34,009 nt of DNA, taken from assembly GCA_016839605.1 (NCBI GenBank), contig JAEOTX010000149.1, forward strand, positions 1 to 34,009. Reading direction: 5' to 3'. Below, one piece after another: positions 1 through 24,139 of the stretch. A program made the translations under genes and the position numbers. Each line of letters opens with the position of its first letter. Position 1 is the stretch's first letter. Below the pieces are notes generated by a model. It saw only the letters and a program-made list of their open reading frames with translations. It was not told the origin of the DNA and made no database searches. This DNA is from Candidatus Thorarchaeota archaeon. GTDB taxonomy: Archaea > Asgardarchaeota > Thorarchaeia > Thorarchaeales > Thorarchaeaceae.

Positions 1-130
1 CAAAGTGCAATGGATTGTAGTCTCCACTCAGGTCTCCGAATATTTTGATATCTTCTTCTGTAATAGTATGTTCTACTTCCGCGTGCTGTCCTATTGACAG
101 GTCAGAATATTTTGTAATTTCCATCTTCAT
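1..130 (-). CDS. MaoC-family (R)-specific enoyl-CoA hydratase/dehydratase, N-terminal part (runs off window edge)
   Basis: Not in the ORF track. Hand translation from ATG 130 (TGATG overlap with the upstream stop; alternative ATG 124) gives MKMEITKYSDLSIGQHAEVEHTITEEDIKIFGDLSGDYNPLHF, containing the MaoC/PhaJ hydratase motif F-x-x-LSGDxNPLH. Confidence 0.88.
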   Translation of the reverse strand, partial: MKMEITKYSDLSIGQHAEVEHTITEEDIKIFGDLSGDYNPLHF

Positions 131-1152
131 CACTCTCTCATAGTTCCCCATCTTATCGTCATAGCATTCCATGACCATCCGATTCCAGCTGCGGTTAACA
201 CCACCACATCCCCCTCTTTGATTTTACCATCCCTCAGACCTTCTTCGAGAGACACAATCGAGTCGTTTTGCCCCATATGCCCCCATTCCTCGAAGTACGT
301 CGATTGCTCATACGGATGAACCCCAAGCTCATTGGCTACGTACTCAAATGCGCTTCTCTTCATCCTGATTAGACCAAGATAGTCGATGTCCTCTCTTGAA
401 TATCCACTCTTCACAAGTGACTCATCAACAACCTTTAGGAAGTTACTCATTGAGAGCCTGTCAAGTCGATCCTTGAGACCGGCTGGGTCTGTAACATCGA
501 GATAGTGCAACCTCTGCTCAAGCGTTTCACAGGTAGCTGGCATTACCGTACCTCCTGCAGGAACATACACATCTTCTGAAAACTGACCATCGGAGATGAC
601 ACTGCCCTCAAGAACTACGTTTTGCGGATAGTCATTCCGAAGTATCATCGCAACTCCACTGGCAGCTAGGTCGTGCATGAAGCGAGTCCGAATGTTGGTG
701 TAATCGATAAGGTCACAGTTTCTATATCCACTACCAATCAGGACTCTACGGTATCCATGAGTCTGCATCAATGACTTGGCAAGAATCATCGCGACAACAA
801 TGGTGCCACACCTCTGGTTGACATCGAAGGCCCATGCTTTAGTCGCACCCACCTCGTTTTGAAACTTAATCGCGTAGGTCTGCATCGGATGTTCAGCGTA
901 CACCTCTCCAGCCCATATCACCAAGTCAATATCATTAGCTGGATCAATTCCCGCTCGCTCAATAGCTACCTTTGCTGCTTTGATTCCCATGGCAACCGTA
1001 TGGTCGTCAGGACCTGGTACCGATTTGCTCAACATCCCCATCTTTGTCTTGATGATTTCAGCAGGAGTTCCAGAATGCTCAGAGATATACTCAGCTGTGT
1101 GTCTCTCTGAAGGTATGTAGGTCCCTATCGCTTCAATACCAATTGATGTCAT
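130..1152 (-). CDS. fabH: 3-oxoacyl-ACP synthase III (FabH-fold) family protein with non-canonical active site
   Basis: 340 aa. N-terminal GIEAIGTYIP, catalytic Cys in FDVNQRCG, C-terminal VVLTAAGIGWSW. The canonical HQAN and GNTS motifs are replaced by IRMK and GHMGQND. Confidence 0.85.
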   Translation of the reverse strand: MTSIGIEAIGTYIPSERHTAEYISEHSGTPAEIIKTKMGMLSKSVPGPDDHTVAMGIKAAKVAIERAGIDPANDIDLVIWAGEVYAEHPMQTYAIKFQNEVGATKAWAFDVNQRCGTIVVAMILAKSLMQTHGYRRVLIGSGYRNCDLIDYTNIRTRFMHDLAASGVAMILRNDYPQNVVLEGSVISDGQFSEDVYVPAGGTVMPATCETLEQRLHYLDVTDPAGLKDRLDRLSMSNFLKVVDESLVKSGYSREDIDYLGLIRMKRSAFEYVANELGVHPYEQSTYFEEWGHMGQNDSIVSLEEGLRDGKIKEGDVVVLTAAGIGWSWNAMTIRWGTMRE

Positions 1153-2684
1153 GATTGTTCCTCCAATTCTCTTTTCAGAATCTTACCTGCGGCACTCTTG
1201 GGTAGGTCTTCACGAAATTCATAGTACTTGGGTATCTTGTAGCGTGCCAATTTCCCATCAAAATAGATTCGGACTTCATCCTCTGTCAACGACTCACCAG
1301 TTCTCAGTACAATGAATGCTTTGCCCACTTCACCCCATTTTTCGTCAGGAACTCCTACCACTGCAGATTCAGAGATTTTGGGGTGTTTGTAAAGAATCTC
1401 CTCTATTTCAGTGGGAAACACATTCTCGCCACCACTGATGAACATATCCTTCTTGCGACCAACAATATAGTAGAATCCGTCCTTGTCCTTCATTACTAAA
1501 TCCCCGGTGTGAACCCATCCATCAGGTTCCACCACCTTCGCTGTTTCCGCTGGTTCTTCCCAATATCCACTAAATGCGTGTGGTCCTTTGAGCAATAACT
1601 CTCCCACTTCTCCATTTCCTACCGCATTATTATCATCATCAGCTATCATGGTGTCACAATGGAATGCAGGAAAACCAACAGATGTTGGTCGCTTCTTCAC
1701 TGTATCATCAGGCAGGTGGAAATTATTGGGTCCTACCTCAGTGAGTCCATACCCCATCTTCAGAATCTTGTCGAGTGCCCAGTATTTTTCCATTATCGCA
1801 ACAGGACACGGAGCGCCACCACTGATGAACACTCGCACGTGGTCAAAGTTTGTCTTCATGAAATTCGGCGATTGTGAAATCATGTTAAACATAGTAGGGA
1901 CGCCAATCACAACAGTGCATTTCTCTCTCTCAATCACTCTGAGTGTTTCCTCAGAATCGAAGTCACCCATGATTACACTCAATGCTCCAAGGTGGTAGAA
2001 CGGAATGAGAAGTACATTGATGCCACCCGTATGAAAGAGTGGAAAGAGTAGTGGTTGAATATCATCTGGTCTAAGTCCCCAAGAAACGATTGTGTTAACT
2101 GAGTTCCAAAATACCAATCCATGTGATAGGACAGCACCTTTGGGAAGACCTGTAGTTCCTCCTGTAAACACGATGAGCCAAGGATCATCCATTGTAATCG
2201 AAGGTCGTTCTACTGCGTTAGAGGATTTCTTTGTCATGAGCGATGAAATATCGGAGTCTGCATCATACGTCTTATCTCCCAGGACGACTAGTTGCTTCTT
2301 TTCAAGGAATGGACGGAGTTCCCCAAATTGGGTTCGCAAATCGGGATCATAGAAAACCACTGAAGGATTTGTCTTCTTCAAAAGATATTGAATCTCAGGT
2401 GTGGTGAGCCGGATGTTGAACGGAGTCGCAATAGCTCCTATCTTTCCACAAGCAAAGAGGATTTCAAGAAAGTCGAATCTATTCTTCGAATAGATGCCTA
2501 CTCGGTGTCCCTTTTGGACTCCTGAATCAAGCAATACTCTTGCCACTTGATTCGCTCGTCTATCCATATCTTCGAATGAGTATCTCTTATTCTGGATGTT
2601 GTCAACTATTGCTTCTCTCTCTGGAGTCAATAGAGCCCTTCTTCCTGTCCAGTCACCTATCCATGACCAGTCCTTCAGGTCCAT
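1149..2684 (-). CDS. fadD: Long-chain fatty acid-CoA ligase / AMP-dependent acyl-CoA synthetase
   Basis: 511 aa. ANL motifs FTGGTTGLPKG, GYGLTE, GWVHTGD, GRKKDMFISGGENV, PKSAAGKILK. ATGA overlap with the downstream gene. Confidence 0.9.
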   Translation of the reverse strand: MDLKDWSWIGDWTGRRALLTPEREAIVDNIQNKRYSFEDMDRRANQVARVLLDSGVQKGHRVGIYSKNRFDFLEILFACGKIGAIATPFNIRLTTPEIQYLLKKTNPSVVFYDPDLRTQFGELRPFLEKKQLVVLGDKTYDADSDISSLMTKKSSNAVERPSITMDDPWLIVFTGGTTGLPKGAVLSHGLVFWNSVNTIVSWGLRPDDIQPLLFPLFHTGGINVLLIPFYHLGALSVIMGDFDSEETLRVIEREKCTVVIGVPTMFNMISQSPNFMKTNFDHVRVFISGGAPCPVAIMEKYWALDKILKMGYGLTEVGPNNFHLPDDTVKKRPTSVGFPAFHCDTMIADDDNNAVGNGEVGELLLKGPHAFSGYWEEPAETAKVVEPDGWVHTGDLVMKDKDGFYYIVGRKKDMFISGGENVFPTEIEEILYKHPKISESAVVGVPDEKWGEVGKAFIVLRTGESLTEDEVRIYFDGKLARYKIPKYYEFREDLPKSAAGKILKRELEEQS

Positions 2685-2782
2685 AATGATTTAGAATGAA
2701 AACATTGTCAAGTATTAGTCTTACTGAAGAGAAACTTGCTGCACTGGGGAGATATCTGCCCGTTTCATTATTCCCGGAATCC

Positions 2783-2797
2783 AAAAGGTATATTATT
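2783..2797 (+). promoter_or_regulatory. Putative BRE/TATA element for the ABC transporter operon
   Basis: AAAAGGTATATTATT about 45-60 nt upstream of ATG 2842 in the divergent intergenic region. Confidence 0.45.
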
Positions 2798-2841
2798 GGC
2801 CGGCATCGGACCCTCTTGGGATATCCAATTCCAGATATGCC

Positions 2842-3660
2842 ATGTCAATTCAGGAGGAAGTCGAATTGTCCTCAGCGAATGAACTTATCCTGAGCACGAG
2901 TGGGTTGACCAAGAATTTTGGTGGTCTAGTTGCTGTCAATGATGTAAGTCTTGATGTCGAAAGAGGTTCGATAAAAGCAATCATCGGTCCAAATGGGTCC
3001 GGAAAAACTACCTTTTTCAATCTCATTACAGGAGCCCTTCCACCTACAGCTGGACGAATATTCTTTGAAGGTCAAAATATAACTAGATCCTCAATGCATC
3101 AACGGACACGACTAGGCATATCACGCTCCTATCAGATCACGAATATCTTCCCGTATCAAACAACATTCGAGAATATTCGATTGGCAGCTCAGGGCTGTAG
3201 TGGTGCAAGAGTAAACTTCCTAGGGATGTTAAAGAGAGCAGGCTCATATGATGAGTTTCATGAGAAGGTCCTGGATATTGCTTCAATTGTGGGTCTTGAT
3301 CCTACGAGGCTCTATATCCCGGCCGCTTTGATACCGCATGCTGAACAAAGAAAGCTTGAAATCGCGATGGCGCTCGCTACAGAACCGAGACTCCTCTTAC
3401 TTGACGAACCTGCTGCGGGAATGGCAATAGAAGAGATACCAGAGGTTATTGATGCCATTTTGCGGGTAAAAGAATCCTATGGTGATCAACTAACTCTACT
3501 TGTGGTTGAGCATAAGATGGACATTGTTATGACCCTCAGTGAGGAAATCTTTGTTCTTTCAGAAGGAAAGATGATTGCGAAAGGGTCTCCAAAGGAGATC
3601 CAAGAAAATGAACAAGTGTTGACAGCTTATCTTGGTGGTACAGATGAACAACTTGCTTGA
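2842..3660 (+). CDS. livG: Liv-type (HAAT) ABC transporter ATP-binding protein, LivG-like
   Basis: KNFGGLVAV, Walker A GPNGSGKTT, Walker B LLLLDEPAAG, VEH motif, AYLG C-terminus. The signature motif is degenerate (IPHAEQ). Confidence 0.9.
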   Translation: MSIQEEVELSSANELILSTSGLTKNFGGLVAVNDVSLDVERGSIKAIIGPNGSGKTTFFNLITGALPPTAGRIFFEGQNITRSSMHQRTRLGISRSYQITNIFPYQTTFENIRLAAQGCSGARVNFLGMLKRAGSYDEFHEKVLDIASIVGLDPTRLYIPAALIPHAEQRKLEIAMALATEPRLLLLDEPAAGMAIEEIPEVIDAILRVKESYGDQLTLLVVEHKMDIVMTLSEEIFVLSEGKMIAKGSPKEIQENEQVLTAYLGGTDEQLA

Positions 3661-4363
3661 AATACAAGACGCTCACGTATACATTGGCTCCTTCTATATT
3701 TTACAAGGAATCTCAATGGTCGTACCCAAAGGAGAAGTGACTCTGTTATTGGGCAGGAACGGTGCTGGTAAAACTACAACGATGAAAACAATACTCGGTC
3801 TCTATCCACCTAGAGAAGGAAAGGTTGTTTTCAAGGGTGAGGAAATATCAAATCTGCCTACCCATAAAATTGTCAATAAAGGCATTGGATATGTCCCTGA
3901 TACCAGAAGGATATTTGGGACACTGACAGTTGAACAGAATCTAACTGTGTCTAGACGGAAGAGCAGTTCTCGGGATGACCTGCAAGAACGATTGGATCTC
4001 ATCTTTGACTTGTTTCCTGACATGAAAGGATTTCTCAAGCAGAGAGCAGGAACTCTGTCTGGCGGTCAACAGCAAATGCTAGCTGTAGCCCGTGCATTGG
4101 TGAATGACAATGATTTGTTGCTCATAGACGAACCTACAGAGGGATTGAGTCCTCTCTTGGCTAAGAATCTTATCAATGCTCTTGACAGACTAAAGGAATT
4201 CGCCACTATCTTACTAGTCGAACAGAACTTTCGGACTGTGTCGAAGCTGGGTGATAACTACTACATTTTCGATAGTGGAAAAATCGTGCATGAGGGCAAT
4301 AACATGAGTGAGCTAATAGCCGACAAGGCACTTGTTGCACAATACTTGGGGGTGAGCATTTAA
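3644..4363 (+). CDS. livF: Liv-type ABC transporter ATP-binding protein, LivF-like
   Basis: GRNGAGKTT, LSGGQQQ, LLLIDEPTEGLSP, LLVEQN. ATG 3644 is preferred over TTG 3632 because it follows an SD-like GGTGG. Confidence 0.9.
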   Translation: MNNLLEIQDAHVYIGSFYILQGISMVVPKGEVTLLLGRNGAGKTTTMKTILGLYPPREGKVVFKGEEISNLPTHKIVNKGIGYVPDTRRIFGTLTVEQNLTVSRRKSSSRDDLQERLDLIFDLFPDMKGFLKQRAGTLSGGQQQMLAVARALVNDNDLLLIDEPTEGLSPLLAKNLINALDRLKEFATILLVEQNFRTVSKLGDNYYIFDSGKIVHEGNNMSELIADKALVAQYLGVSI

Positions 4364-5475
4364 TGACTATGCAAACAAAGAGATTCTCTCCTCGGGATTA
4401 CTTGGAGGAAAACCCACAGGTTCGTAAGATATTGAGAATTGCAATGGTTATTGCACTCATAATAATTGGAGGTCTATTGGTCGTAATGGCTATAGACGTT
4501 TATACATGGGATGGATTTGTTGCAAGGACTAGCAAATCGGTGGTTAATGGTCTTGCGCTCAGCATGTTGCTTTTCTTGATGGTTTCTGGTTTCTTCTTGA
4601 TCTTTGGTCTATGTGATGTCATCAATTTCGCTCATGGCGCTTTCTTTATGTTGGGAGGGTTCATGGGTTTTGTTATCTATCTTGGAACCGAGGCTCTTTT
4701 CCTAGATTCAACCCTGCCGTTCCATCTTATCTTTGGAGCTAATCAATTTGCCATGTCTCTCACAGCTTTTATTGTAAGTGCCCTTGGAGCTACTGCAATT
4801 CTTGCCCTTATTGGTGGAGGAATAGAGTTCTTTACAGTTCGGCGGCTTTATGGCAATCCTATTGCTCAGATACTGCTGACAGTTGGTTTTATGTTCATTA
4901 TCACTCAGATTGCCGAGATCATCTGGGGGCCTCCCCAATTTAGCTACTTCATTACTCCCAATTCGCAAATAGCCTACTTCTTCATGAGTGGTATTCTTGA
5001 TTTTGGCGAAGGGATGATATTTGAGATATATCGCATTTTCTTGATTTTTCTCGGGTTAGCAGTTGCTGCAATAATGTTTGTTGGATTTAGAAAGACACGT
5101 ATCGGACTCCAGATACAAGCAGGTATAGAAGATTCAGAGATGGTTGAAGCGTTAGGGACTGATATCAGAAAATTGTTCACAATTGTATTCATGTTGGGTG
5201 CAGGTCTAGCGGGACTATCAGGTGCTGTCCTGGTCCCGTGGATTGGAGCAAACTCAGGACATGGTTTGACATACCTCATTTACGCTTTTGTCATAGTCGT
5301 TATTGGCGGCGCACATTACGGTCGCTTTGAAGGGACTTTCTTCGGTGCGCTTATAGTCGGTCTATCAATGCAATTCACAGCATATTTCATTCCATTTCTT
5401 GAGAACATCATTGTATTCATCATTATGGCGATTATTCTGATTATAAGACCAGGAGGACTGACGGGTCATGAATGA
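4363..5475 (+). CDS. livH: Liv-type ABC transporter permease, LivH-like
   Basis: Multi-TM protein with LIFGLCDVINFAHG, KTRIG, VIVVIGG and IRPGGL motifs. TAATG coupling to the upstream gene. Confidence 0.88.
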   Translation: MTMQTKRFSPRDYLEENPQVRKILRIAMVIALIIIGGLLVVMAIDVYTWDGFVARTSKSVVNGLALSMLLFLMVSGFFLIFGLCDVINFAHGAFFMLGGFMGFVIYLGTEALFLDSTLPFHLIFGANQFAMSLTAFIVSALGATAILALIGGGIEFFTVRRLYGNPIAQILLTVGFMFIITQIAEIIWGPPQFSYFITPNSQIAYFFMSGILDFGEGMIFEIYRIFLIFLGLAVAAIMFVGFRKTRIGLQIQAGIEDSEMVEALGTDIRKLFTIVFMLGAGLAGLSGAVLVPWIGANSGHGLTYLIYAFVIVVIGGAHYGRFEGTFFGALIVGLSMQFTAYFIPFLENIIVFIIMAIILIIRPGGLTGHE

Positions 5476-7210
5476 AGAAAGAAAAATCGTTGGGAATCTG
5501 AAAGGAACTATCCTTAGGATACCCTCTATACTTTCAAACAATAGAACAGTAATCGCTGTTCTAGCGTTTTTGTACTTACTCCCATTGGGTACAACTGCAG
5601 GGACGTCCCCCGTTCGAGCTCTGCTCTTCCTTATTACTCAGATAATGATTTTCAGTCTTCTTGCAATGTCTTTTGATCTACAATTAGGCCGTTCAGCGCT
5701 TCTGAATTTTGGACATGTTGCACTTTTCGGTGTGGGGGCTTATTTCATGGCATATACTTTGGATGCAGGTTTTCTCCCCGAGCCCTTTAATGCTATTGCA
5801 GCCATTCCATATCCGCTCACGTTAGTTCTAGCAATGATGATTGGAGGATTTCTTGGGCTTATAATGGGATTGACAACGAGCCGAATGAGAGGCACAGCAT
5901 TTGCATTTATTGCTTTAGCGATTTCGATGTTCCTCTATAATTTCTACGCTGAAAATCCGGGTCTTTCTGGTGGAGAAACAGGACTGGGGGTGCCAACTCC
6001 AGATCTCATCAGGACTGCACCTTTCTATCTGCTCTTTGTCGCCCTTGCATTTGTATTCCTTGCCGCTTTTGCTGGAATGGTCATCCTTTACTTGAAGAAG
6101 CGAACGGATTCAATTGCCCTCATCTTGTTCACTCCAATCATGATAGTCTTTACAGCTTTCCTATTCTTATTTGGAACAAACATCTATGGGCCTATACTGG
6201 TATTCTATGCCTTTCTTGGGATGATACTTCTCTTTTGGATGGAGCGGAAGAGACGAATAAGTGACCCTTTAGAATATGTTGAGAAGACGTTTGCAATGAA
6301 AGGTGAAGTGGAAACCACTAACAAGATGACAACCTATGTAATACCTTTCATTATCATAATAATAACCCTCATAGGTCTGGCAGTTACTTTCGGAACCAAC
6401 ATTGCTGAGATGGTATCCCTGTGGATTGAAGACACCACCACATTCTATTACACAATTCCGGTGCAATTCTATCTAGTATTGACTTGTCTTGTGATGACCT
6501 ACTTCTTCATTAGGCGATTAATTGCATCACCATTTGGGAGAATGGTAACTGCGGTTGCTCAGAATGAAGAACGGGCTGAAGCCTTAGGCTACAATAGCTA
6601 TCGTGCCAAAATAGTCGTTCTTGTTATAAGTGGGGCAATTGCCGCTCTTGCGGGGGCGTTGTATGCACCTTTCATTAGAACTATTGATCCGGGCACTGCA
6701 TTAGGAGTCGAGGTGACAATCAATGCGATGTTGTACACCATTATCGGAGGAATTGGCACACTACTAGGCCCAATACTCGGCACAGGAGTAGTGGTGTACT
6801 CTGAGCTAAATCTGGTAGACTTCATCACGGAGGGTCTAGGCCTACCTGGACGATTATGGTTGGTTGGGCTAGGAGTGATGTATATTTTCATTGTTCTATT
6901 CATGCCCCTTGGTATCGTAGGTTCTATTGGACGCAGGGCTGGGTCTATCAAAGAAAGTCTACGACAATTGAAATTCGGTCGTTTTGAGTTTGGACTGAAG
7001 GATGTTGACTATTGGGTATTTGGGTTCCTAGGAATAATGGGCCTATTCTTCTTCTTGGTGGAAGATCCTAGGTTTCTCCCTATTGCTATCGGTATCTTTG
7101 GATTTCTGGGGGTAGTAGGTTTCTTCCTTTTGTATATCTTTAGAGGGGAGATTTCATCGAGAATAAGAAGCTACGCCAAGAAATTGCGCTTTGCTAGAGG
7201 AGGCGATTGA
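5468..7210 (+). CDS. livM: Liv-type ABC transporter permease, LivM-like, with large internal insertion
   Basis: LLNFGHVALFGVGAY, SGGETG, SPFGR...QNEERAEALGY, IIGGIGTLLGPILG, MPLGIVG. At 580 aa it is longer than typical. Confidence 0.88.
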   Translation: MNEERKIVGNLKGTILRIPSILSNNRTVIAVLAFLYLLPLGTTAGTSPVRALLFLITQIMIFSLLAMSFDLQLGRSALLNFGHVALFGVGAYFMAYTLDAGFLPEPFNAIAAIPYPLTLVLAMMIGGFLGLIMGLTTSRMRGTAFAFIALAISMFLYNFYAENPGLSGGETGLGVPTPDLIRTAPFYLLFVALAFVFLAAFAGMVILYLKKRTDSIALILFTPIMIVFTAFLFLFGTNIYGPILVFYAFLGMILLFWMERKRRISDPLEYVEKTFAMKGEVETTNKMTTYVIPFIIIIITLIGLAVTFGTNIAEMVSLWIEDTTTFYYTIPVQFYLVLTCLVMTYFFIRRLIASPFGRMVTAVAQNEERAEALGYNSYRAKIVVLVISGAIAALAGALYAPFIRTIDPGTALGVEVTINAMLYTIIGGIGTLLGPILGTGVVVYSELNLVDFITEGLGLPGRLWLVGLGVMYIFIVLFMPLGIVGSIGRRAGSIKESLRQLKFGRFEFGLKDVDYWVFGFLGIMGLFFFLVEDPRFLPIAIGIFGFLGVVGFFLLYIFRGEISSRIRSYAKKLRFARGGD

Positions 7211-7211
7211 G

Positions 7212-8051
7212 TTGCCACATGTAGCTATAGGTGACGTTGATCTCTATTATGAATCTCATGGGGCCCCCGGACTCCCAACAATTGTTTTCATTGGAGGATG
7301 GGCCAGTTACCGTTGGATATGGTTTCGACAAATTCCCTACTTAAAAGAAAGATACAGATGTATTGTCTTTGATAATCGTGGATCCGGAAGAAGTTCCAAA
7401 CCTGATTATCCGTATACAATGGATATGTTTGCTAGCGATACCGTTGGTCTGATGGAGGCATTGAATATCGAAACTGCACATGTCCTAGGGATTTCAATGG
7501 GTGGATTGATTGCACAGCAAATAGCTATTTCCTATCCTGAAAAGCTTCGAAGTTTGATCATTGTTTCTAGCCATTTTGGAGGGCCCAATCATATTCCTAT
7601 AGATGACAAAACACTGGCCTTGCTAGGTGCCATTCCCACTGAAACAATCTCGAGAGAGCAGTCCATGGAGATGCGTTATAGGGCAACTTTCAGTCCGCAG
7701 TTCCTTCAAGAAAACAGGTCATTGATAGAATTAACACAAGAATGGGCAAATAAGCATCCAGCACCGCTATTTGCACAAGTACATCAAGCCTCTGCAACAA
7801 GCGCATTTAATGCTGAATCGGAATTGAAAAAGATATCTGCACCTACACTTATCTTACATGGAGATAGTGACCTTGCGGTACCGACTAGGAATGGAGAACT
7901 GTTAGATCAACGCATATCCAATTCGAAATTGAAAATCATAAAGGACGCATCACATTTTGTCATCATTGAAAAGCATGAAGAGTTCAATAATGAGGTAATG
8001 AATTTTATAGATGAAGTGGAACAAGGACAATTCTCTCCTAGGCCCCAGTAG
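7212..8051 (+). CDS. Alpha/beta-fold hydrolase (esterase / enol-lactonase-like)
   Basis: DNRGSGRS, nucleophile elbow GISMGG, acid in HGDSD, His in ASHF. TTG 7212 is preferred because it follows GGAGG, avoids overlap and aligns with the paralog's N-terminus; the track start is 7191. Confidence 0.87.
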   Translation: MPHVAIGDVDLYYESHGAPGLPTIVFIGGWASYRWIWFRQIPYLKERYRCIVFDNRGSGRSSKPDYPYTMDMFASDTVGLMEALNIETAHVLGISMGGLIAQQIAISYPEKLRSLIIVSSHFGGPNHIPIDDKTLALLGAIPTETISREQSMEMRYRATFSPQFLQENRSLIELTQEWANKHPAPLFAQVHQASATSAFNAESELKKISAPTLILHGDSDLAVPTRNGELLDQRISNSKLKIIKDASHFVIIEKHEEFNNEVMNFIDEVEQGQFSPRPQ

Positions 8052-8112
8052 AAGGTGATTTAGGCAAGAAAGAGTGTGCTTGTCCAGATATCAAACTTAG
8101 AGGAAGTTGTAG

Positions 8113-9123
8113 ATGGTTCGTTCAGCTGTGGTCACAAGTCTGGGAATGTATGTTCCTGAAAAGATGTTAACAAATGAAGAAATTGAGCAGATGCTTGATC
8201 GTCCTGGAACAGCAGATTGGTTGGTGGAGAATGTTGGCATCAGACAACGTCACATCATGGCTGAAGATGAGGTGACATCTGATCTTGCTCTTCATGCTGG
8301 TCGTGAAGCATTAGAAAATACGGGATTGGAAGCAGACGATCTCGACCTAATCATTTTGAGTACTGACACACCGGACTATCTATCTCCAGCAACTTCCGTT
8401 GTGGTTCAGCACAAACTCGGCGCAAAAAATGCAGGTACATTTGATGTCAACTGCGCTTGTGCCGGTTTGGTCACTTCTTTGGATATTGCTTCTCGATATA
8501 TCAAAACAGACTCGGACATTAATTCGGTATTGGTGATTGGCGCATATGGAATGACCAAATTTGTAGATTGGACTGATCACTATACCTGTACGTTGTTTGC
8601 GGACGCTGCAGGAGCTATGGTAGTGCGAGCCAGTGAAGACCAAGAAGGATTCATAGCCTCAAAATTGATTTCGGATGGCTCATTCCACGATCATCTAGGT
8701 ATCTTCGTTGGAGGAACAGCTGAGCCACCAACAGTTGAAGCAATCCAGAATCATAGGCACCATCTATCTTTTCGTAAACGCTTTCCTGCAGACACAAACC
8801 TCCAACATTGGCCAACTATGACAAGAGATTGTGTATCAAAGGCGAATCTATCCATCGAGGATATCGATTGGATTTTCTTCACTCAGGTGAACATACGAAC
8901 TATTGAGGCGGTAATGAAGGAACTAGGTATGCCTCTTGAGAAGACCCACAATGTTATGGATAAATGGGGTTATACAGGTTCAGCTTGTATTGCATTGGCG
9001 ATGTACGATGCAATTGAGCAAGGAAAACTTCCGCCACCTGGACAAGGAAATGGTGAGAATATAGCACTCTGCTCGTCGGGGGGAGGTTTCAACATGGCTG
9101 CCGCTGTGTTGAAATGGTGGTAA
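8113..9123 (+). CDS. fabH: 3-oxoacyl-ACP synthase III (FabH-fold) family protein with non-canonical active site
   Basis: GMYVPE, GIRQRH, catalytic Cys in FDVNCACAG, LFADAAGA, SGGGF. HQAN is replaced by TQVN and GNT by GYT. Confidence 0.88.
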   Translation: MVRSAVVTSLGMYVPEKMLTNEEIEQMLDRPGTADWLVENVGIRQRHIMAEDEVTSDLALHAGREALENTGLEADDLDLIILSTDTPDYLSPATSVVVQHKLGAKNAGTFDVNCACAGLVTSLDIASRYIKTDSDINSVLVIGAYGMTKFVDWTDHYTCTLFADAAGAMVVRASEDQEGFIASKLISDGSFHDHLGIFVGGTAEPPTVEAIQNHRHHLSFRKRFPADTNLQHWPTMTRDCVSKANLSIEDIDWIFFTQVNIRTIEAVMKELGMPLEKTHNVMDKWGYTGSACIALAMYDAIEQGKLPPPGQGNGENIALCSSGGGFNMAAAVLKWW

Positions 9124-9193
9124 GGGATTTTTATTCCGGTTGTTCTTGATAATGCATATTGAGCAGGTATAGATTTCCTACTGAGGGGATTCA

Positions 9194-10744
9194 ATGGTAA
9201 ACCAGTTTGATTATTTATCCAAGAGGGACATCTTCTCACCAGAGGCTGAAGCTCTAGTAGATGTTGAAACCGGGAGAAGATACTCCTATAGGGCGTTCAA
9301 CAAACGTGCGAATAAGGTCGCCAACTTCCTTCAACAAGTAGTTGAATTTCAGAAGGGGGATCGTTTATGCATTCTTGCCCAAAATAGCTTGGAATACTGG
9401 GAAACGTTTTTCGGATGTCAAAAGAGTGGAGGTATTTTCAGTCCGCTCAACTGGCGGTTGGTCGCTCGAGAATTAGCGGGACTGATTGATGATCTTGCCC
9501 CCTCCGTGTTATTCTTTGATTCTGAACTAGCTGAAGTTGCATCAGAGCTGAAGCAAGATGTCACGGTTGAACACTGGGTCTCATTGGATTCGAAAGGAAC
9601 GGAAGTGGAAGGTTCTCTAAGCTACGAGGAAGGTATGAATAAAGCAGCATCCAGTCCGCCTGATGCAGTTGATCTCTCTTATGAAGATCCAATGGGCATC
9701 GTATTTACTGGAGGGACAACGGGTCTTCCAAAAGGTGCTATGATTACCTACAGACAGGTTGCGTTCAACACTCTTACTACAATTAGGGACATCCTTCCTG
9801 GTGATGTCTACATAAATCATCTACCTCTCTTCCATGTCGGAGGACTCTATGTTTATGCAATTCCACTCTTCATATTGGGAGGAAAAGTAATCCAAATGAA
9901 GAGATGGGATCTTGATGTGTTAATTGATGTAATCAACAAGGAGAATCCAAACTTCTTCTTTGCCGTTCCCACGCAATATCGAATGCTGATGAATCATCCT
10001 GATTTCAACTCAATTGACTTCAAGAACGTTCGATTCTTGACATCCGGAGGCGAACCTTTACCCTTAGACATTATCAAGACATTCCGAGAGAAACACGGAG
10101 TAAAATTCAAACAAGGTTTTGGAATGACAGAGGTTGGACCAGGTTGTTTTGCTCTTGATCCATGGGATGCTGAACGTAAGATTGGCAGTATTGGTACGCC
10201 CAACTTCTTCATCGACGCGAAAGTAGTTGATCCTGAAACCGGAAGGGACTGCAGTGCAAACGAGGTTGGTGAACTTCTGTTCAGAGGACCAACGGTGACT
10301 ATTGGCTACTGGAATCGACCAGAATTGAATAAGACGCTATTAGATGAAGGTGGCTGGTTTAGCACAGGCGACATGGTCTATTTCGATGATGAGGGGTACT
10401 ACTATGTAGTGGATCGGGTGAAGGACATGTTCATCTCTGGGGGTGAGAATGTCTATCCCAGAGAAATCGAAAAACTCCTGGAAGAGCATCCAAAGATAGC
10501 TCAAGTGCAGGTAATCGGCGTACCTGATTCCAAATGGGGAGAGGTTGGACGTGCGATTGTTGTCTTGAAGGCGGGACAAGAAGCATCGGAGGAAGAAATA
10601 ATCGACTACTGCGAAGGTAAACTGGCTAGATTCAAGATTCCCAAATCAGTGCGCTTCACAGAGAGTTTCACTTCCTATATCTCGGGAGCGGGAAAGATCC
10701 TAAAACGAAGATTGCGGGAGGATTTTGGACAGGAGGAGAAATAG
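9194..10744 (+). CDS. fadD: Long-chain fatty acid-CoA ligase / AMP-dependent acyl-CoA synthetase
   Basis: FTGGTTGLPKG, QGFGMTE, WFSTGD, DRVKDMFISGGENVYP, GAGKILK. Paralog of 1149..2684. Confidence 0.9.
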   Translation: MVNQFDYLSKRDIFSPEAEALVDVETGRRYSYRAFNKRANKVANFLQQVVEFQKGDRLCILAQNSLEYWETFFGCQKSGGIFSPLNWRLVARELAGLIDDLAPSVLFFDSELAEVASELKQDVTVEHWVSLDSKGTEVEGSLSYEEGMNKAASSPPDAVDLSYEDPMGIVFTGGTTGLPKGAMITYRQVAFNTLTTIRDILPGDVYINHLPLFHVGGLYVYAIPLFILGGKVIQMKRWDLDVLIDVINKENPNFFFAVPTQYRMLMNHPDFNSIDFKNVRFLTSGGEPLPLDIIKTFREKHGVKFKQGFGMTEVGPGCFALDPWDAERKIGSIGTPNFFIDAKVVDPETGRDCSANEVGELLFRGPTVTIGYWNRPELNKTLLDEGGWFSTGDMVYFDDEGYYYVVDRVKDMFISGGENVYPREIEKLLEEHPKIAQVQVIGVPDSKWGEVGRAIVVLKAGQEASEEEIIDYCEGKLARFKIPKSVRFTESFTSYISGAGKILKRRLREDFGQEEK

Positions 10745-10746
10745 CC

Positions 10747-11553
10747 ATGCCATTCAGTGAAGTAAATGGGATAAACATCTATTATGAGATCCATGGCAAA
10801 GGTGAGCCAGTAGTCTTTGGTAATGGTGTCTTCCAAAATACATTGGGGTGGGTCAATCAGATTCCAACGTTTTCTAAAGAGTATCAAGTCATATTGTATG
10901 ACATGCGTGGGCAAGGCCAAAGCGATAAGCCCGAAGGTCCATATTCTTTCGAAATCCATGCTGAAGACCAAAAGACTCTTCTCGAAAATCTTGGGATTTC
11001 TGAAGTTCATCATGTTGGAATCAGTTACGGGGCTGAACTTGGTCTAGTCTTTGCGTTGACATATCCAGAAATGCTGAAGAGCCTTGTCGTTTGTAGTGCT
11101 GTTTCATTTGTAGGACCCTTACTCAATAAGATGGTCCAATTATGGAGGTATGCTTGTGCTCGTGAGGACCCTGAGATGTTCTATTTCGCAACATTGCCTT
11201 TGAATTTTAGCGAGACCTTCCTTCGAGAGCAAACTGCTGTTCTAGAACAAGCAAAAGAACGATACGTGCATTTAGATTTTCCACCGCTTGTAAGATTGAT
11301 AGATGCTTTTCTGAAGCTGAATATCACGGACAAGTTACCGCAGATCGAAATACCCACTTGTGTCATTGCGGGTGAGAAGGATATTTTGAAGCCTGCATAT
11401 CCGTATTCGATGGTGATTCATGATGGTGTGCCCAATTCAGAAATGGTCATAATTCGTGATTCGGGGCATGCCATTATGTTTGACAAACCCGAAGAGTTCA
11501 ACAGCATAGTTCTAGGATTCTTACGAAAGCATTCCCAATCGCATAAACTCTAG
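10747..11553 (+). CDS. Alpha/beta-fold hydrolase (PcaD/enol-lactonase-like)
   Basis: DMRGQGQSDKP, GISYGA nucleophile elbow, GEKD acid, SGH His. Confidence 0.87.
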   Translation: MPFSEVNGINIYYEIHGKGEPVVFGNGVFQNTLGWVNQIPTFSKEYQVILYDMRGQGQSDKPEGPYSFEIHAEDQKTLLENLGISEVHHVGISYGAELGLVFALTYPEMLKSLVVCSAVSFVGPLLNKMVQLWRYACAREDPEMFYFATLPLNFSETFLREQTAVLEQAKERYVHLDFPPLVRLIDAFLKLNITDKLPQIEIPTCVIAGEKDILKPAYPYSMVIHDGVPNSEMVIIRDSGHAIMFDKPEEFNSIVLGFLRKHSQSHKL

Positions 11554-11593
11554 AGAGGGGTAATTCCGCTGTTATTCCCCAATTTCCTTAAGA

Positions 11594-11641
11594 GATATAT
11601 ATCGGGGGCCCCAGCGTTAAGGGCTAGACATAGAATGTCTA
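11594..11641 (+). promoter_or_regulatory. Putative TATA box and inverted-repeat operator upstream of the substrate-binding protein gene
   Basis: GATATATATC at 11594-11603, followed about 22 nt later by the perfect inverted repeat TAGACAT-AGA-ATGTCTA (11625-11641). Confidence 0.5.
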
Positions 11642-11693
11642 TGTTCTAAATCTAACACAATACTGTTCAAGTACTGTGATTGGAGGAAAGAAG

Positions 11694-13187
11694 ATGAAAA
11701 AAATACGAACGATATCGCTATCTCTTTTGTTGCTACTATCGGTATCCCTCTTCTTGCCCTGTTTCTTGGCTAGACCAGCTGCTGCACAGCCAGACCCAAT
11801 TAAGATTGGAGTTTTCACCCCCGAAACAGCAGGTCTGATAGCATATGGACCATGGACAAAACAAGGCTTCTCATTGGGATTGGAATATGCAACTACGATG
11901 ATGGGATATGATAATAAGAACAAGACCGAAGCAGGTCGGCCCTATGAAGTTCACTTTTATGATACTCAGGGTGATATAACCCATGCAGCATCCGAAGCAG
12001 TAGATGCTATCGAAACTGATGGAATCGACATTCTCGTCGGAGGAACTTCTAGTGCAGTTGCCGCAGCAATAGCACCTATTGCTGAAGATTATGAAAAGCT
12101 ATATTTCATAAGTCCAGCTGCTGCTTCTTCACTGACTGCTGCTGACTTTAATCCATACATTTTCCGTATCGCCAGAAACAACTGGCATGATGCCTATGCA
12201 GGCGTCACGTATGCTATGGATTACCTCAACTATACGAAATTCGCCTTTCTTGCTGCTGATTATTCCTTTGGATATGACGGCGTTGCTTCAATGACAACTG
12301 TAATCGAGGACAAGGGAGGAGTAGTGCTCAGTTCCGTGTATGCAAATCTCTTTGATACTGATTTCTCTCAAGAGATTGATGCTCTCAAAGCTGCTGATTT
12401 AGTAAACGATATTGAGTATCTGTTCATCATTTGGGCTCTTGACTTCTCATATCTATACAATGACATGACAACATACAATCTCGCAGCTGACATGGAAATT
12501 GCTGGAGCATGTATTGATATCCTTTCAATGAACACCATTGAAGCGAGTTTGACTCCTCCAGCTACCTACATCGGTTCCACTGGGCTCTGTCTGTACGGCT
12601 ATGAACTACCCAACAACACGGTTAATGATTGGATGGTGGACCAGCATGTCACACAAAACATCATGCCGAATCATCTCTTTGCACTGACCTATCGAGTACC
12701 AGAGCTTTTCACTGCAAGTGCCTTTGCAACGGCGCAATTCTTGGTTGATGTAACAAATGCGGTCCCAGATCTAGATACGCATTCGATGATCAACTATCTT
12801 GAAGGCGGCATTACCATTGACTGCCCGAAGGGACCAACATACTTGAGACCGGGTGACCATCAAGGGCTTGCAGAGATGTATATCGCAGAAGCTGTGAATG
12901 ATACCCGCTCCGGGTCTGAAACAGAGAATCTCGTCATTGCCGAATTGGTTGAAACCTTAGACCGTGACACTGTTGCACCTCCAGTTGAGGCTGTCTGGGA
13001 TGGCGTTCCATATGTTCCAGGTGGATTCGCACCAGAAACAACCACTACTACTACTACTACCACTCCTACGACGACAACCGAACCTCCACCACCACCACCA
13101 CCGATTGATCCGATACTGCTTCTGGCACTCGGTGGCGGAGCTCTAGTAGTGATAGTCCTCATTGTCGTGGTAATGAAAAGGCAATAG
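11694..13187 (+). CDS. Liv-type ABC substrate-binding protein (periplasmic binding protein type 1) with signal peptide, Thr/Pro linker and C-terminal TM anchor
   Basis: Signal peptide MKKIR-hydrophobic-AAA, then PIKIG, DILVGGTSS, YIFR, ADYSFG, PKG...RPGDHQ. Ends in a T/P-rich linker, a TM helix and MKRQ. ATG 11694 follows GGAGG; the track start is GTG 11676. Confidence 0.88.
   Translation: MKKIRTISLSLLLLLSVSLFLPCFLARPAAAQPDPIKIGVFTPETAGLIAYGPWTKQGFSLGLEYATTMMGYDNKNKTEAGRPYEVHFYDTQGDITHAASEAVDAIETDGIDILVGGTSSAVAAAIAPIAEDYEKLYFISPAAASSLTAADFNPYIFRIARNNWHDAYAGVTYAMDYLNYTKFAFLAADYSFGYDGVASMTTVIEDKGGVVLSSVYANLFDTDFSQEIDALKAADLVNDIEYLFIIWALDFSYLYNDMTTYNLAADMEIAGACIDILSMNTIEASLTPPATYIGSTGLCLYGYELPNNTVNDWMVDQHVTQNIMPNHLFALTYRVPELFTASAFATAQFLVDVTNAVPDLDTHSMINYLEGGITIDCPKGPTYLRPGDHQGLAEMYIAEAVNDTRSGSETENLVIAELVETLDRDTVAPPVEAVWDGVPYVPGGFAPETTTTTTTTTPTTTTEPPPPPPPIDPILLLALGGGALVVIVLIVVVMKRQ
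13038..13103 (+). repeat. ACN/CCN trinucleotide low-complexity tract encoding the poly-Thr/poly-Pro linker
   Basis: ACA ACC ACT ACT ACT... then CCT CCA CCA CCA CCA CCA CCG, encoding TTTTTTTTTPTTTTEPPPPPPP. Confidence 0.85.
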
Positions 13188-13200
13188 CATCAATACAAAT

Positions 13201-13240
13201 GTAGTCTGGAAATCCCCCAGACTACTCCCCTTCTTTTTTC
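13201..13240 (+). terminator. Hairpin plus pyrimidine/T-tract terminator after the lipid/ABC operon
   Basis: Perfect 9-bp stem GTAGTCTGG / CCAGACTAC with a 7-nt loop, followed by TCCCCTTCTTTTTTC, 13 nt after the stop, between convergent genes. Confidence 0.7.
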
Positions 13241-13330
13241 TCAATATCAAGAACAGCTGCTCAGAAGAACAGAGAATCATCTGCTCTAGAATCCTCACTG
13301 CAAACCAGCGGTATAGAAATCGATTTGCTC

Positions 13331-13726
13331 TTATGTCGAGAGTAGATCGCCGACTTCTTTGGCGTATTTCCTCATCTGAGTTGTAGCCAAGCCCATGGAT
13401 GTCAAGTCTTTGGCGGCACCCATAAGTAGAAACTCGCCAGCCTGTGAAAGGACAGCAAAACCCTTCGCTCCTCTGACCGTCACCTCAAAGAGTTCTCCCA
13501 AATCAAGCCTCTCTGGAGATGCAGCCATCTCTCCAGTCATCAACAATGCTGCACTTACAGCAGCCATGAGGTCTGGATCTGCTTCAGAGTCCTCTGTGGC
13601 GAAGTACGCCAGCTTTACACCCTGTTTGCTGACAACCGCAATGGCGTCAAGGTCAGCATAGTTGGTCAATCCCATTAGGAGCTCTACGAGTTCCTTCTCC
13701 TTTTCTGGGTCGAGATGTTGCGACAT
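13331..13726 (-). CDS. Roadblock/LC7 (MglB/LAMTOR2-like) domain protein
   Basis: 131 aa with the roadblock pattern AIAVVSKQG...DPDLMAAVSAALL...GE...L.LGEL.EVTVRGAKG...AG...SMGL. Confidence 0.85.
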   Translation of the reverse strand: MSQHLDPEKEKELVELLMGLTNYADLDAIAVVSKQGVKLAYFATEDSEADPDLMAAVSAALLMTGEMAASPERLDLGELFEVTVRGAKGFAVLSQAGEFLLMGAAKDLTSMGLATTQMRKYAKEVGDLLST

Positions 13727-13754: not shown

Positions 13755-14693
13755 TTATTTTGCTACTAGCTTCTTCTTCTTTTTAGTGGTCTTAGCCTTT
13801 CCCTTCGCGGCTGGTACAGCAGGCGCTTCTGTTTCGGACCTGAAGAAACTGATAAGGTCTCCCAAGCGCTCTTTCATCTCTTGCTTGATTGGGCTCAGAA
13901 TGGCTTCAGGCGTGCCCTTTAGTAATTCAATGCCTAGGACCTTCCCATCCTTCACAATAACGCGAGGAATGAATCCCTCTGCCATAAATGTGCCCTCTGG
14001 CGGATCCCTGACTTTTTCGAACTTCCTCTCGACTTTCTCTTGTCCAAAGACGGCTATCTTATGCTCTGCAACTGTGAACAATTCATTATACACGATTAGC
14101 AGTTCTCTCTGGTAGCCTTCAGGTGGATCAGTTGTCTGCAACTCCTCAATCATAGCGCTTATCTCACTTGAGACTGGCACTGCAGGGGGAGCAGTAGCTG
14201 GAGCTGCCTTTGGGATTGCTGCAGGTTTGGGTGGGGCTTTGGCTGTAGCAGGTGGCTTCGGAGGCGGTGCCGCTGCTTTTGGAGCTGGTTTCGGCTTCGG
14301 AGGTGGTGCAGTTTCTACCTTTGCAGTTGGTGTTTCTGCGGCAGGTGCTTTTGGTTTTGGCTTTGGGGGGGCTGTAGTCGGAGCCTTCTCTCCTGGCTTA
14401 AGGACACGTGTTGCAGCTGTTGTGCCATCTAAGGCGGTGAAAAACGTTGGCGGCTCTTCGCCTTCGTCTACCGCGCGTACCTTGAAATGGAATCCGTACT
14501 CAGTTCGAAGATTGGTAGCAACTCTGGCACCAATGAATTTCCTTCTGATTCCTGCTTGAGTACCCTTCCAAAGATAGATTGACTTGGTCTCGTCGTCAAC
14601 AACGCAGACAACCATTTGAGAATCTAAGTCCGCTTTGGAAATCTCAACTTCGTTGAGGGTTCCATCCTCCATTACCTCATAACCTACGACCAT
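13755..14693 (-). CDS. Gelsolin-like domain protein with Pro/Ala/Lys-rich linker, uncharacterised C-terminal domain and polybasic tail
   Basis: The N-terminal ~90 aa match the gelsolin repeat pattern (LDS..V..V D...IYLWKG......K..A...A......VDEGEEP..F). A ~85 aa P/A/K linker follows, then a globular domain and a KKKKK tail. Confidence 0.75.
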   Translation of the reverse strand: MVVGYEVMEDGTLNEVEISKADLDSQMVVCVVDDETKSIYLWKGTQAGIRRKFIGARVATNLRTEYGFHFKVRAVDEGEEPPTFFTALDGTTAATRVLKPGEKAPTTAPPKPKPKAPAAETPTAKVETAPPPKPKPAPKAAAPPPKPPATAKAPPKPAAIPKAAPATAPPAVPVSSEISAMIEELQTTDPPEGYQRELLIVYNELFTVAEHKIAVFGQEKVERKFEKVRDPPEGTFMAEGFIPRVIVKDGKVLGIELLKGTPEAILSPIKQEMKERLGDLISFFRSETEAPAVPAAKGKAKTTKKKKKLVAK

Positions 14694-14913
14694 GATTGTT
14701 CACTAACTTGCAGTTTTTGTCTTCTTGCTCCTGTGCCCCCAATCCGGGCAACTGAAGACTAGTCGAGATATGGTCATCTCTGTGGACAACTGGATATCTC
14801 TGTTTGGGATATAAGATTGTTATTGTGGTGGATGTAGCACGTACAAACACTGAAAGTGAAGCAGGTCAACAAGCCTTATGTAGCAGGGGAGCTAACGGCT
14901 TTCGTTGGTGCCG

Positions 14914-15972: not shown

Positions 15973-15980
15973 CACAATCT

Positions 15981-18685: not shown

Positions 18686-18700
18686 GATCTCGCCCTCGAG

Positions 18701-19825: not shown

Positions 19826-19857
19826 CACAGACACAACCATACTATTCTTATATCTGT

Positions 19858-19880: not shown

Positions 19881-19913
19881 GGACTGAGATAAATAGTTTG
19901 CTTTGGAGTGAAT

Positions 19914-23950: not shown

Positions 23951-24139
23951 AGTCAAGCCTTCCTGATGCATAGTGACCAGTGGTCAGGCTGGGGCGACAG
24001 GATTGAGCCCGTTTTTAAAGCTAGCGCCGGTTTGATATTCGTACGCTAGCTGAATCTGAACCGGATTCAATTCGCTTATATTGAATGAAAGTGCGAGAGA
24101 GCCATAAGAAGACTCGGTCAAATGTATGGAGCACACGCT

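Follow-up and report, generated by a model that had tools for sequence, protein, structure and literature searches.

The window analysed here, a 34,009-nucleotide stretch of DNA from a Candidatus Thorarchaeota archaeon, carries at positions 1-13187 a gene cluster in which a Liv-type importer, two alpha/beta-fold hydrolases, two acyl-coenzyme A (CoA) ligases, a MaoC-type hydratase, and two proteins of the ketoacyl-acyl carrier protein (ACP) synthase III (KAS III) fold, here called KAS1 and KAS2, stand together. We read this cluster as an accessory, horizontally mobile operon for the uptake and processing of an exogenous carboxylic acid or acyl/hydroxyacyl ester, and not as a fatty-acid synthase, with a probability of about 0.5. 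The module is real and conserved, and is a variant within a known enzyme superfamily. The first-pass annotation had proposed a system that imports acyl esters, hydrolyses them, activates the products with CoA, and then condenses or transfers them. The conserved gene association and the independence from ACP speak for this scheme, while condensation of the FabH type is unlikely because both KAS proteins lack the His-Asn pair for decarboxylation and no malonyl-CoA/ACP route was found.

KAS2 matches the Pfam families ACP_syn_III and ACP_syn_III_C, as does KAS1, which places both in the KAS III fold. In the predicted structure of KAS2 (pLDDT 94.9) the fold is intact, with template modelling (TM) scores of 0.85-0.91 against the structures of FabH, FabH2, and BioZ, and E-values against solved FabH structures (1hn9 of Escherichia coli, 8vd9 [FabHA] of Bacillus subtilis, and 4ryb of Neisseria meningitidis) went down to 1e-53. 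When KAS2 was aligned with solved FabH proteins, the nucleophilic Cys was kept, whereas TQVN stood for HQAN and GYT for GNT. KAS2 has Cys116-Thr257-Tyr287 instead of the Cys-His-Asn triad for malonyl decarboxylation. The GGG oxyanion loop was retained in the same alignment, and so, presumably, was the CoA-stacking Trp, judged by its place in E. coli FabH.

KAS2 was queried against 1.84 billion representative proteins, and 135 of the best 150 matches (those of at least 290 residues) were aligned. The 16 closest relatives in this alignment, 36-53% identical to KAS2, have Cys-Thr-Tyr except for one with Cys-Asn-Tyr. Over the whole alignment, Cys-Thr-Tyr occurred in 19 sequences, counting KAS2 of the window, and canonical Cys-His-Asn in 108. 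In a maximum-likelihood tree, the Cys-Thr-Tyr clade was monophyletic and split from canonical FabH with a Shimodaira-Hasegawa-like approximate likelihood ratio test (SH-aLRT) support of 100% and a branch length of 0.71. Eight positions are fixed in the clade and distinguish it from FabH (D85, P225, N229, W233, T257, Y287, G289, and C292); Cys292 was found in 19/19 Cys-Thr-Tyr sequences and in 0/108 canonical ones. P225, N229, and W233 replace the GxxVFKxAV motif of the pantetheine tunnel of FabH. Since the Cys and the oxyanion loop are kept and the His/Asn pair and the tunnel helix are changed, the half of the site that loads the acyl group appears to be retained and the half that receives the second substrate rebuilt.

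KAS2 scored 245.1 on the FabH model TIGR00747, below the cut-off of 292.1, and 272 on the subfamily model NF006829, above its cut-off of 249; the database label 'ketoacyl-ACP synthase III' on KAS2 follows from the latter. The Thiolase_N score of 21.1 bits (cut-off 26.4) puts KAS2 outside the thiolase family by Pfam. FabH, with the same fold and length, is the closest known family. Judged from active-site residues, KAS2 is not a FabH, and FabH chemistry would be impossible for both KAS proteins: membership fails on the triad (His to Thr and Asn to Tyr in KAS2, His to Ile-Arg and Asn to His in KAS1) and on the partner system, and KAS2 differs further by the rebuilt tunnel helix and the added Cys292.

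KAS1 scored 419.7 bits on the NCBIfam model NF005308 (PRK06840, '3-oxoacyl-ACP synthase'), over the equivalog cut-off of 315. Aligned with solved FabH proteins, KAS1 keeps the Cys, reads IRMK at the His site and GHM at the Asn site, and does not show the Cys-His-Asn triad. Most members of the PRK06840 family read xHMK(R/K)S and GHxGQ, and the Thorarchaeota copies have Arg for that His. KAS1 and KAS2 were both present in the Asgard genomes tested. In one bacterial locus (L007), the KAS1 gene directly follows KAS2, and its product shows 45% identity with KAS1 of the window and scores 486.9 bits on NF005308. On the complete Thorarchaeota chromosome CP070658, KAS1 lies 100 kb away from KAS2, and KAS1 was not found in the two complete Myxococcota genomes searched, both of which have KAS2. 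Because the two are adjacent in L007, distant in CP070658, and KAS1 is absent from Myxococcota, a partnership of KAS1 and KAS2 is possible, although not obligatory for the clade.

Contig C79, which makes up the window, belongs to a genome (G000; 3.08 Mb, 259 contigs, 80% complete) in which the FabH partner system of ACP, phosphopantetheinyl transferase (PPTase), FabD, and acetyl-CoA carboxylase was not found. The nearest relatives of the proteins encoded in the window carry the label Thorarchaeota, in line with an Asgard archaeon of that type. Profile searches of G000 gave no match to PP-binding (PF00550), ACPS (PF01648), Acyl_transf_1 (PF00698), or Biotin_carb_C (PF02785), and none to PhaC_N. 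Because G000 is incomplete, the searches for ACP and biotin carboxylase were repeated on CP070658, which carries the module, and no PP-binding (PF00550) or Biotin_carb_C (PF02785) match was obtained on this complete chromosome. The absence of ACP, PPTase, and malonyl transacylase, noted earlier for the cluster, therefore holds in the 80%-complete genome, and that of ACP also in CP070658, so that the system is supported as ACP-independent. G000 encodes HMG-CoA synthase, at least four thiolases, six acyl-CoA dehydrogenases, and carboxyltransferases. In a Heimdallarchaeota chromosome (G202, CP070760), an 83-residue open reading frame (ORF) at C1:1690551-1690733 matched PP-binding marginally (23.7 bits, cut-off 20.8), and two biotin carboxylase genes were seen; unlike Thorarchaeota, G202 may have an ACP-like protein and a carboxylase.

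The features of the cluster are as follows.
2-178, minus strand: N-terminal 59 codons of a MaoC-type (R)-specific enoyl-CoA hydratase/dehydratase, an open-ended ORF truncated by the contig end.
130-1152, minus strand: KAS1, a KAS III-fold protein of the NCBIfam PRK06840 family (PF08545 and PF08541).
1149-2684, minus strand: acyl-CoA ligase 1 of the ANL family (AMP-binding and AMP-binding_C), overlapping KAS1 by 4 bp.
2685-2841, no strand assigned: divergent intergenic spacer of 157 bp, putative promoter region (from its sequence and an alignment of the spacer from five related loci).
2710-2728, no strand assigned: conserved box in the spacer, AAGTATTAGTCTTACTGAA, kept among Thorarchaeota loci.
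2778-2797, no strand assigned: box resembling a B recognition element (BRE)/TATA box, AATCCAAAAGGTATATTATT, kept among Thorarchaeota loci, ~45 nt 5' of the ATG of the ATP-binding cassette (ABC) transporter operon.
2842-3660, plus strand: LivG-like ABC ATPase (ABC_tran and BCA_ABC_TP_C).
3632-4363, plus strand: LivF-like ABC ATPase (ABC_tran).
4363-5475, plus strand: LivH-like permease (BPD_transp_2).
5468-7210, plus strand: LivM-like permease with a long N-terminal membrane extension (BPD_transp_2 at residues 290-475).
7191-8051, plus strand: alpha/beta-fold serine hydrolase A with the elbow GISMGG (Abhydrolase_1), overlapping the permease gene by 20 bp.
8113-9123, plus strand: KAS2, a KAS III-fold protein of the Cys116-Thr257-Tyr287 clade (Pfam, alignments, tree, and structure model).
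9194-10744, plus strand: acyl-CoA ligase 2 (AMP-binding).
10747-11553, plus strand: alpha/beta-fold serine hydrolase B with the elbow GISYGA (Abhydrolase_1).
11676-13187, plus strand: Liv-type substrate-binding protein (Peripla_BP_6).
13201-13242, plus strand: terminator-like hairpin, GTAGTCTGG / CCAGACTAC, followed by a T-run in the sequence, marking the end of the right arm.

These genes form two divergent transcription units, and ORFs and Pfam matches bore out both that every gene listed earlier is intact and that each arm holds a ligase and a KAS III-fold gene. The claimed tight coupling was confirmed as well, with overlaps of 4, 29, 1, 8, and 20 bp and otherwise gaps of 2-122 bp. The arms are paralogous in part only, with identities of 40% between the ligases, 32% between the hydrolases, and 23% between the KAS genes. 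The spacer probably serves as the promoter region of both arms, and a TATA-like box in the 122-bp spacer 5' of the binding-protein gene suggests that this gene may have its own promoter. The start codon of the MaoC gene is uncertain, with ATG candidates at 178, 151, 130, and 124; its fragment contains the hydratase motif SGDYNPLH, and full-length orthologues that match PF01575 occupy the same position in five related loci (L002, L018, L024, L025, and L027). In the Thorarchaeota relative L025, the left arm ends, after MaoC, with the gene of a 300-residue tandem AHSA1/SRPBCC protein (673-1575, minus strand), a position whose equivalent in the window lies beyond the contig end. From its hydrophobic-ligand fold, this protein could be a carrier of lipids or hydrophobic ligands, or a cyclase, of the module.

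A check of synteny across Asgard archaea and bacteria showed strong conservation of the gene association. The order of the core genes, hydrolase-KAS2-ligase-hydrolase, is kept in Thor-, Hermod-, Hod-, and Heimdallarchaeia (Hodarchaeales L001 and L027, Hermodarchaeota L002, Thorarchaeota L018-L026, and the Heimdallarchaeota chromosome L028) and in Chloroflexota, Acidobacteriota, Myxococcota, Acetothermia, and Caldisericia, and L002 has the whole mirrored layout. We counted the neighbours of KAS2 in 85 loci, of which the 77 with sufficient flank were used for the ligase count. The ligase was the next gene 3' of KAS2 in 63/77 loci (Asgard 13/13, Chloroflexota 21/23, Acidobacteriota 14/19, and Myxococcota 13/14). 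The next gene 5' of KAS2 encoded an alpha/beta hydrolase in 14/14 Asgard and 14/15 Acidobacteriota loci, and some Chloroflexota have a FabG-like short-chain dehydrogenase/reductase (SDR) in its place. MaoC lay within 8 kb of KAS2 in 10/11 Acidobacteriota loci. In an uncultured Anaerolineae metagenome-assembled genome (L093), a single ORF at 8804-11011 is an in-frame fusion of hydrolase and KAS2, whose called product (P0307) has 624 residues.

A scan with one genome per species found a Cys-Thr-Tyr relative in at least 597 genomes. Carriers include Anaerolineae and other Chloroflexota, Pyrinomonadaceae, Blastocatellia, Myxococcota, Competibacteraceae, and Acetothermia, and members of the clade from Caldisericia came from representative protein clusters. 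Archangium gephyra, Pyxidicoccus fallax, and Chondromyces apiculatus are cultured carriers among the Myxococcota. In Asgard archaea the spread was patchy, with 18/201 sampled genomes, and 13/43 in the window's own family. In a tree of the 80 most similar loci, Asgard KAS2 proteins formed one clade (SH-aLRT 100%) whose placement relative to the bacterial clades was a basal polytomy. Because the clade is mainly bacterial, a bacterial origin is plausible. The module is an accessory trait common to bacteria and some Asgard archaea and does not define a lineage. With so few Asgard carriers in a mostly bacterial clade, the bearing on lipid handling in the eukaryote-related lineage that the first-pass annotation had seen is weak. 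The module gives no evidence that archaea related to eukaryotes make fatty acids in the bacterial manner or possess a special lipid trait.

With two ATPases, two BPD_transp_2 permeases, and one Peripla_BP_6 binding protein, the transporter has the full composition of a HAAT/Liv-type importer. The binding protein carries a signal peptide at its N-terminus, a stalk rich in Thr and Pro, and a membrane anchor at its C-terminus; it is predicted to be extracellular, and its nearest solved relatives are 3nnd and 3n0x of Rhodopseudomonas palustris. The Pfam and NCBIfam names of the transporter parts refer to branched-chain amino-acid and urea systems, and the importer might on this account take up branched-chain amino acids and be functionally unrelated to the acyl-CoA genes. 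We regard such a coincidence as very improbable. The binding protein scored 29 bits on the LivJ-type model NF011933, whose cut-off is 477; the genes of the permease and hydrolase A overlap by the 20 bp given above; and the linkage of transporter and enzymes recurs in Hodarchaeales, Hermodarchaeota, Anaerolineales, Caldisericia, and others. Most COG0683 binding proteins of R. palustris, which are of the same class, bound fatty, dicarboxylic, or aromatic acids, and few bound Leu, Ile, or Val (PMC3223731), in support of the earlier suggestion that this Liv-type protein may carry carboxylic rather than amino acids.

The uptake genes around the core vary by phylum. Liv-type ABC genes accompany it in Asgard archaea, Chloroflexota, and Caldisericia, and the Acidobacteriota loci have a TonB-type outer-membrane barrel (10/11) and a major facilitator superfamily (MFS) transporter (7/11). 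Regulators near the core are of the TetR type in Myxococcota and of the LAL/BTAD type in Chloroflexota. In L025, a response-regulator/GAF/PAS protein and a multi-PAS histidine kinase, which are not there in the window, follow the binding-protein gene (15192-19592); they may regulate the module.

Hydrolases A and B have intact Ser elbows and no signal peptide and are predicted to be cytoplasmic. The nearest solved relatives are the carboxylesterases Est1 (6eb3 and 8v16) and 5egn for hydrolase A, and the metagenomic esterases MGS-M2 (4q3l) and Est1 for hydrolase B. On the polyhydroxyalkanoate (PHA) depolymerase models NF050089 (cut-off 300) and TIGR02240 (cut-off 250.6), hydrolase A scored 78.9 and 83.5 and hydrolase B 69.3 and 64.3, all below the cut-offs. 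These weak matches bear on a special case of the catabolic reading, PHA salvage, in which (R)-3-hydroxyalkanoate oligomers or similar hydroxy-acid esters would be imported, hydrolysed, ligated to CoA, dehydrated by MaoC or oxidised by FabG, and thiolysed. The fold classes mirror those of PHA turnover (PhaZ-like hydrolase, PhaJ-type MaoC, PhaB-like FabG, and ligase), the (R)-specific hydratase is a conserved part of the module, and the carriers come from sediment, soil, and activated sludge according to record titles and to source runs from marine sediment metagenomes. For the DNA of the window itself, the source runs listed are a marine sediment metagenome, with wetland and soil runs contributing small shares only; no RNA evidence was listed among the public runs for 130-10129. 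However, hydrolase A reached only 79-83 bits where the depolymerase cut-offs are 250-300, and PHA catabolism as known assigns no step to enzymes of the KAS III type. We consider PHA salvage improbable.

The best NCBIfam matches of ligase 1 were fatty-acyl-CoA ligase families, all under their cut-offs, and the nearest solved relatives of ligase 2 were a fatty-acyl-CoA synthase and feruloyl-CoA synthetase (8weu and 8wev) and FadD13. In the bacterial loci L006 and L007, an AcetylCoA_hydro-type CoA-transferase takes the place of the ligase; it scored 316 bits on the butyryl-CoA:acetate CoA-transferase model, below the cut-off, and L006 additionally has a thiolase. This substitution indicates that the job of the ligase is CoA activation and counts against a lactone synthetase similar to OleC.

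Under the uptake-and-processing reading, import of the compound would be the task of the Liv-type ABC transporter with its anchored binding protein, both assigned to their families from sequence. The two cytoplasmic serine esterases would then open ester or lactone bonds, if esters or lactones are the form imported. The two paralogous ligases would make CoA thioesters from the acids, a role supported by the CoA-transferase swaps in the two bacterial loci. The two KAS III-fold enzymes would handle these thioesters, as the acyl-accepting Cys and the oxyanion hole are kept and the malonyl-decarboxylation pair is lost. KAS2 may form an acyl-Cys116 intermediate, followed by a non-decarboxylative step that could be either a thiolase-like cleavage or formation of a C-C bond on 3-oxoacyl-CoA or the transfer of the acyl group to a new acceptor. 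In the thiolase-like version, Tyr287 and Thr257 would be oxyanion ligands and Cys292 would act as acid/base; that KAS2 is specifically thiolase-like we think rather unlikely. MaoC would interconvert (R)-3-hydroxyacyl-CoA and enoyl-CoA and, together with the FabG-like reductase added in many bacterial versions, may supply or remove 3-hydroxy, 3-oxo, and enoyl intermediates. Thiolases and acyl-CoA dehydrogenases encoded in the genome would receive the products.

Several points weigh against this reading. No characterised member of either KAS clade, nor of the cluster, was found in the literature searched. Three Competibacteraceae have KAS2 alone, next to a restriction-modification system, a pyridine-nucleotide oxidoreductase, and Tex. 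Beta-oxidation genes seldom adjoin the module, acyl-CoA dehydrogenase being seen at one locus and thiolase at three. The presumed nearness of Cys292, Thr257, and Tyr287 to Cys116 is deduced from the alignment with FabH. The MFS transporter of the Acidobacteriota could be an exporter, the combination of KAS, FabG-like reductase, MaoC, and ligase also fits biosynthetic elongation or condensation, and tandem SRPBCC (AHSA1) proteins such as the one after MaoC in L025 can be polyketide cyclases.

The main rival view is that the module is biosynthetic and that KAS III-like enzymes join or extend two imported or activated acids without ACP, in head-to-head or pyrone/resorcinol-type reactions (OleA, CorB/MxnB, PpyS, DarB/StlD, and PqsBC). 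FabG-like and MaoC proteins would make the partners in their 3-oxo and enoyl forms, release or decarboxylation of the product would fall to the hydrolases, and the SRPBCC protein found 3' of MaoC in L025 would be a cyclase or carrier. In favour of this view, a separate ligase accompanies each of the KAS genes, the two KAS genes are neighbours in L007, the four fold classes of the Ole system (KAS, AMP-ligase, alpha/beta hydrolase, and SDR) are all present in bacterial loci, and LAL/BTAD-type regulators stand near the Chloroflexota loci. Elongating KAS I/II enzymes have a Cys-His-His site, and a hypothetical one-residue shift in the alignment would give the same residues in most members of the KAS1 family, which read HMK and GHxGQ. 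On the other hand, the genes of importers dependent on a substrate-binding protein and of TonB-type receptors adjoin those of the enzymes or are translationally coupled with them, and an OleC-like lactone synthetase role would not permit the CoA-transferases found at two loci. OleA, CorB, and PqsD keep the Cys-His-Asn triad, whereas KAS2 lacks it and matches these enzymes weakly or partially. Asgard clusters have no OleD-type reductase, Myxococcota genomes have KAS2 without KAS1, and Thorarchaeota have no biotin carboxylase for the supply of malonyl-CoA. A biosynthetic role therefore seems to us unlikely, although less so than PHA salvage.

OleABCD resembles the module in bringing together a thiolase-superfamily enzyme, an alpha/beta hydrolase, and an enzyme of the AMP-ligase family, to which bacterial loci add an SDR. 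However, the match of KAS2 to OleA is partial (E-value 1e-16 over residues 20-142), KAS2 has no triad, the Asgard loci have no reductase, the ligase can be exchanged for a CoA-transferase, and importers are attached. The CoA-transferases at two loci and the accompanying importers weaken the OleABC-like alternative raised in the first-pass annotation.

Closer functional analogies to the uptake-and-processing module may be offered by non-canonical KAS III-like proteins (PqsBC, in which PqsC has a Cys-His dyad, and the acyltransferases CerJ, ChlB3/ChlB6, and DpsC), which have KAS III folds with incomplete triads and pass an acyl group from the CoA ester made by a dedicated ligase to a non-malonyl acceptor. 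The module likewise combines two distinct KAS III-like genes, which are neighbours in L007. However, similarity to PqsC is low (E-value of about 1e-10), the residue sets are unlike, Myxococcota have KAS2 without KAS1, and the module has an importer and esterases and no secondary-metabolite context of the kind surrounding these proteins. PqsBC, CerJ, and ChlB3 would be the nearest analogues in function and, at the level of the operon, the pim operon of R. palustris with Liv-type transporters. In pimFABCDE, a COG0683 Liv-type importer likewise adjoins genes for an acyl-CoA ligase and for acyl-CoA processing, and this importer takes up fatty and dicarboxylic acids (PMC3223731). The pim genes form a standard beta-oxidation set, whereas the module has esterases, KAS III-like proteins, and MaoC.

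An archaeal CoA-dependent fatty-acid synthase composed of ketothiolase/DUF35, SDR, MaoC, and enoyl-CoA reductase has been described (bioRxiv 10.1101/2024.07.05.601840). It shares with the module the independence from ACP, the use of CoA, and a MaoC-type (R)-dehydratase; it differs in condensing by ketothiolase/DUF35, where the module has KAS III-fold proteins together with an importer and esterases. We rejected the assignment of the cluster to this synthase, as the cluster contains no ketothiolase/DUF35 pair and no reductases. The possibility that the cluster maps onto an already characterised pathway was pursued in the literature, and no match was found.

It is conceivable that the Cys-Thr-Tyr(-Cys292) clade constitutes a new catalytic class of the thiolase superfamily, performing a non-decarboxylative reaction on CoA esters, either of the thiolase-like C-C type or a C-O acyl transfer. 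Joined to its constant partners (esterase, ligase, MaoC, and in some cases a PRK06840 KAS), the clade would define a pathway not yet described. With this pathway, soil-dwelling and anaerobic microbes from several Asgard lineages and from six or more bacterial phyla would consume or remodel an ester or hydroxy acid that is abundant in the environment. We offer this extension tentatively and hold it to be less probable than the reading on which it builds. The analysis marks out a well-defined and widespread enzyme clade and pathway, and its cultured Myxococcota carriers make the biochemistry directly testable. Hundreds of such proteins are labelled 'ketoacyl-ACP synthase III' in databases, and in archaea this label invites a wrong inference of bacterial-type fatty-acid synthesis among relatives of the eukaryotes. 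The present result corrects the FabH label in favour of a conserved, importer-linked operon without FabH chemistry, an accessory trait held in common with bacteria.

The remainder of the window consists of housekeeping genes, including a thermosome gene, HisRS, ThiN, and another ABC system. Outside the acyl cluster, a Roadblock/LC7 gene (13331-13726, minus strand; Pfam E-value 4.6e-08) lies directly 3' of a gene for a 312-residue protein without a Pfam match (13755-14693, minus strand), a pair indicating an Asgard genome. The second, unrelated ABC importer (15981-19840, minus strand) comprises an ATPase, a BPD_transp_1 permease of 547 residues, and an SBP_bac_1 binding protein. Because a ThiN-domain gene (19908-20843) adjoins it, thiamine-related uptake is suggested for this importer. 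Two further ORFs encode proteins of 355 residues (14905-15972, plus strand), with no Pfam family at E <= 0.01, and 736 residues (21761-23971, minus strand), with no Pfam family at E <= 1e-5.

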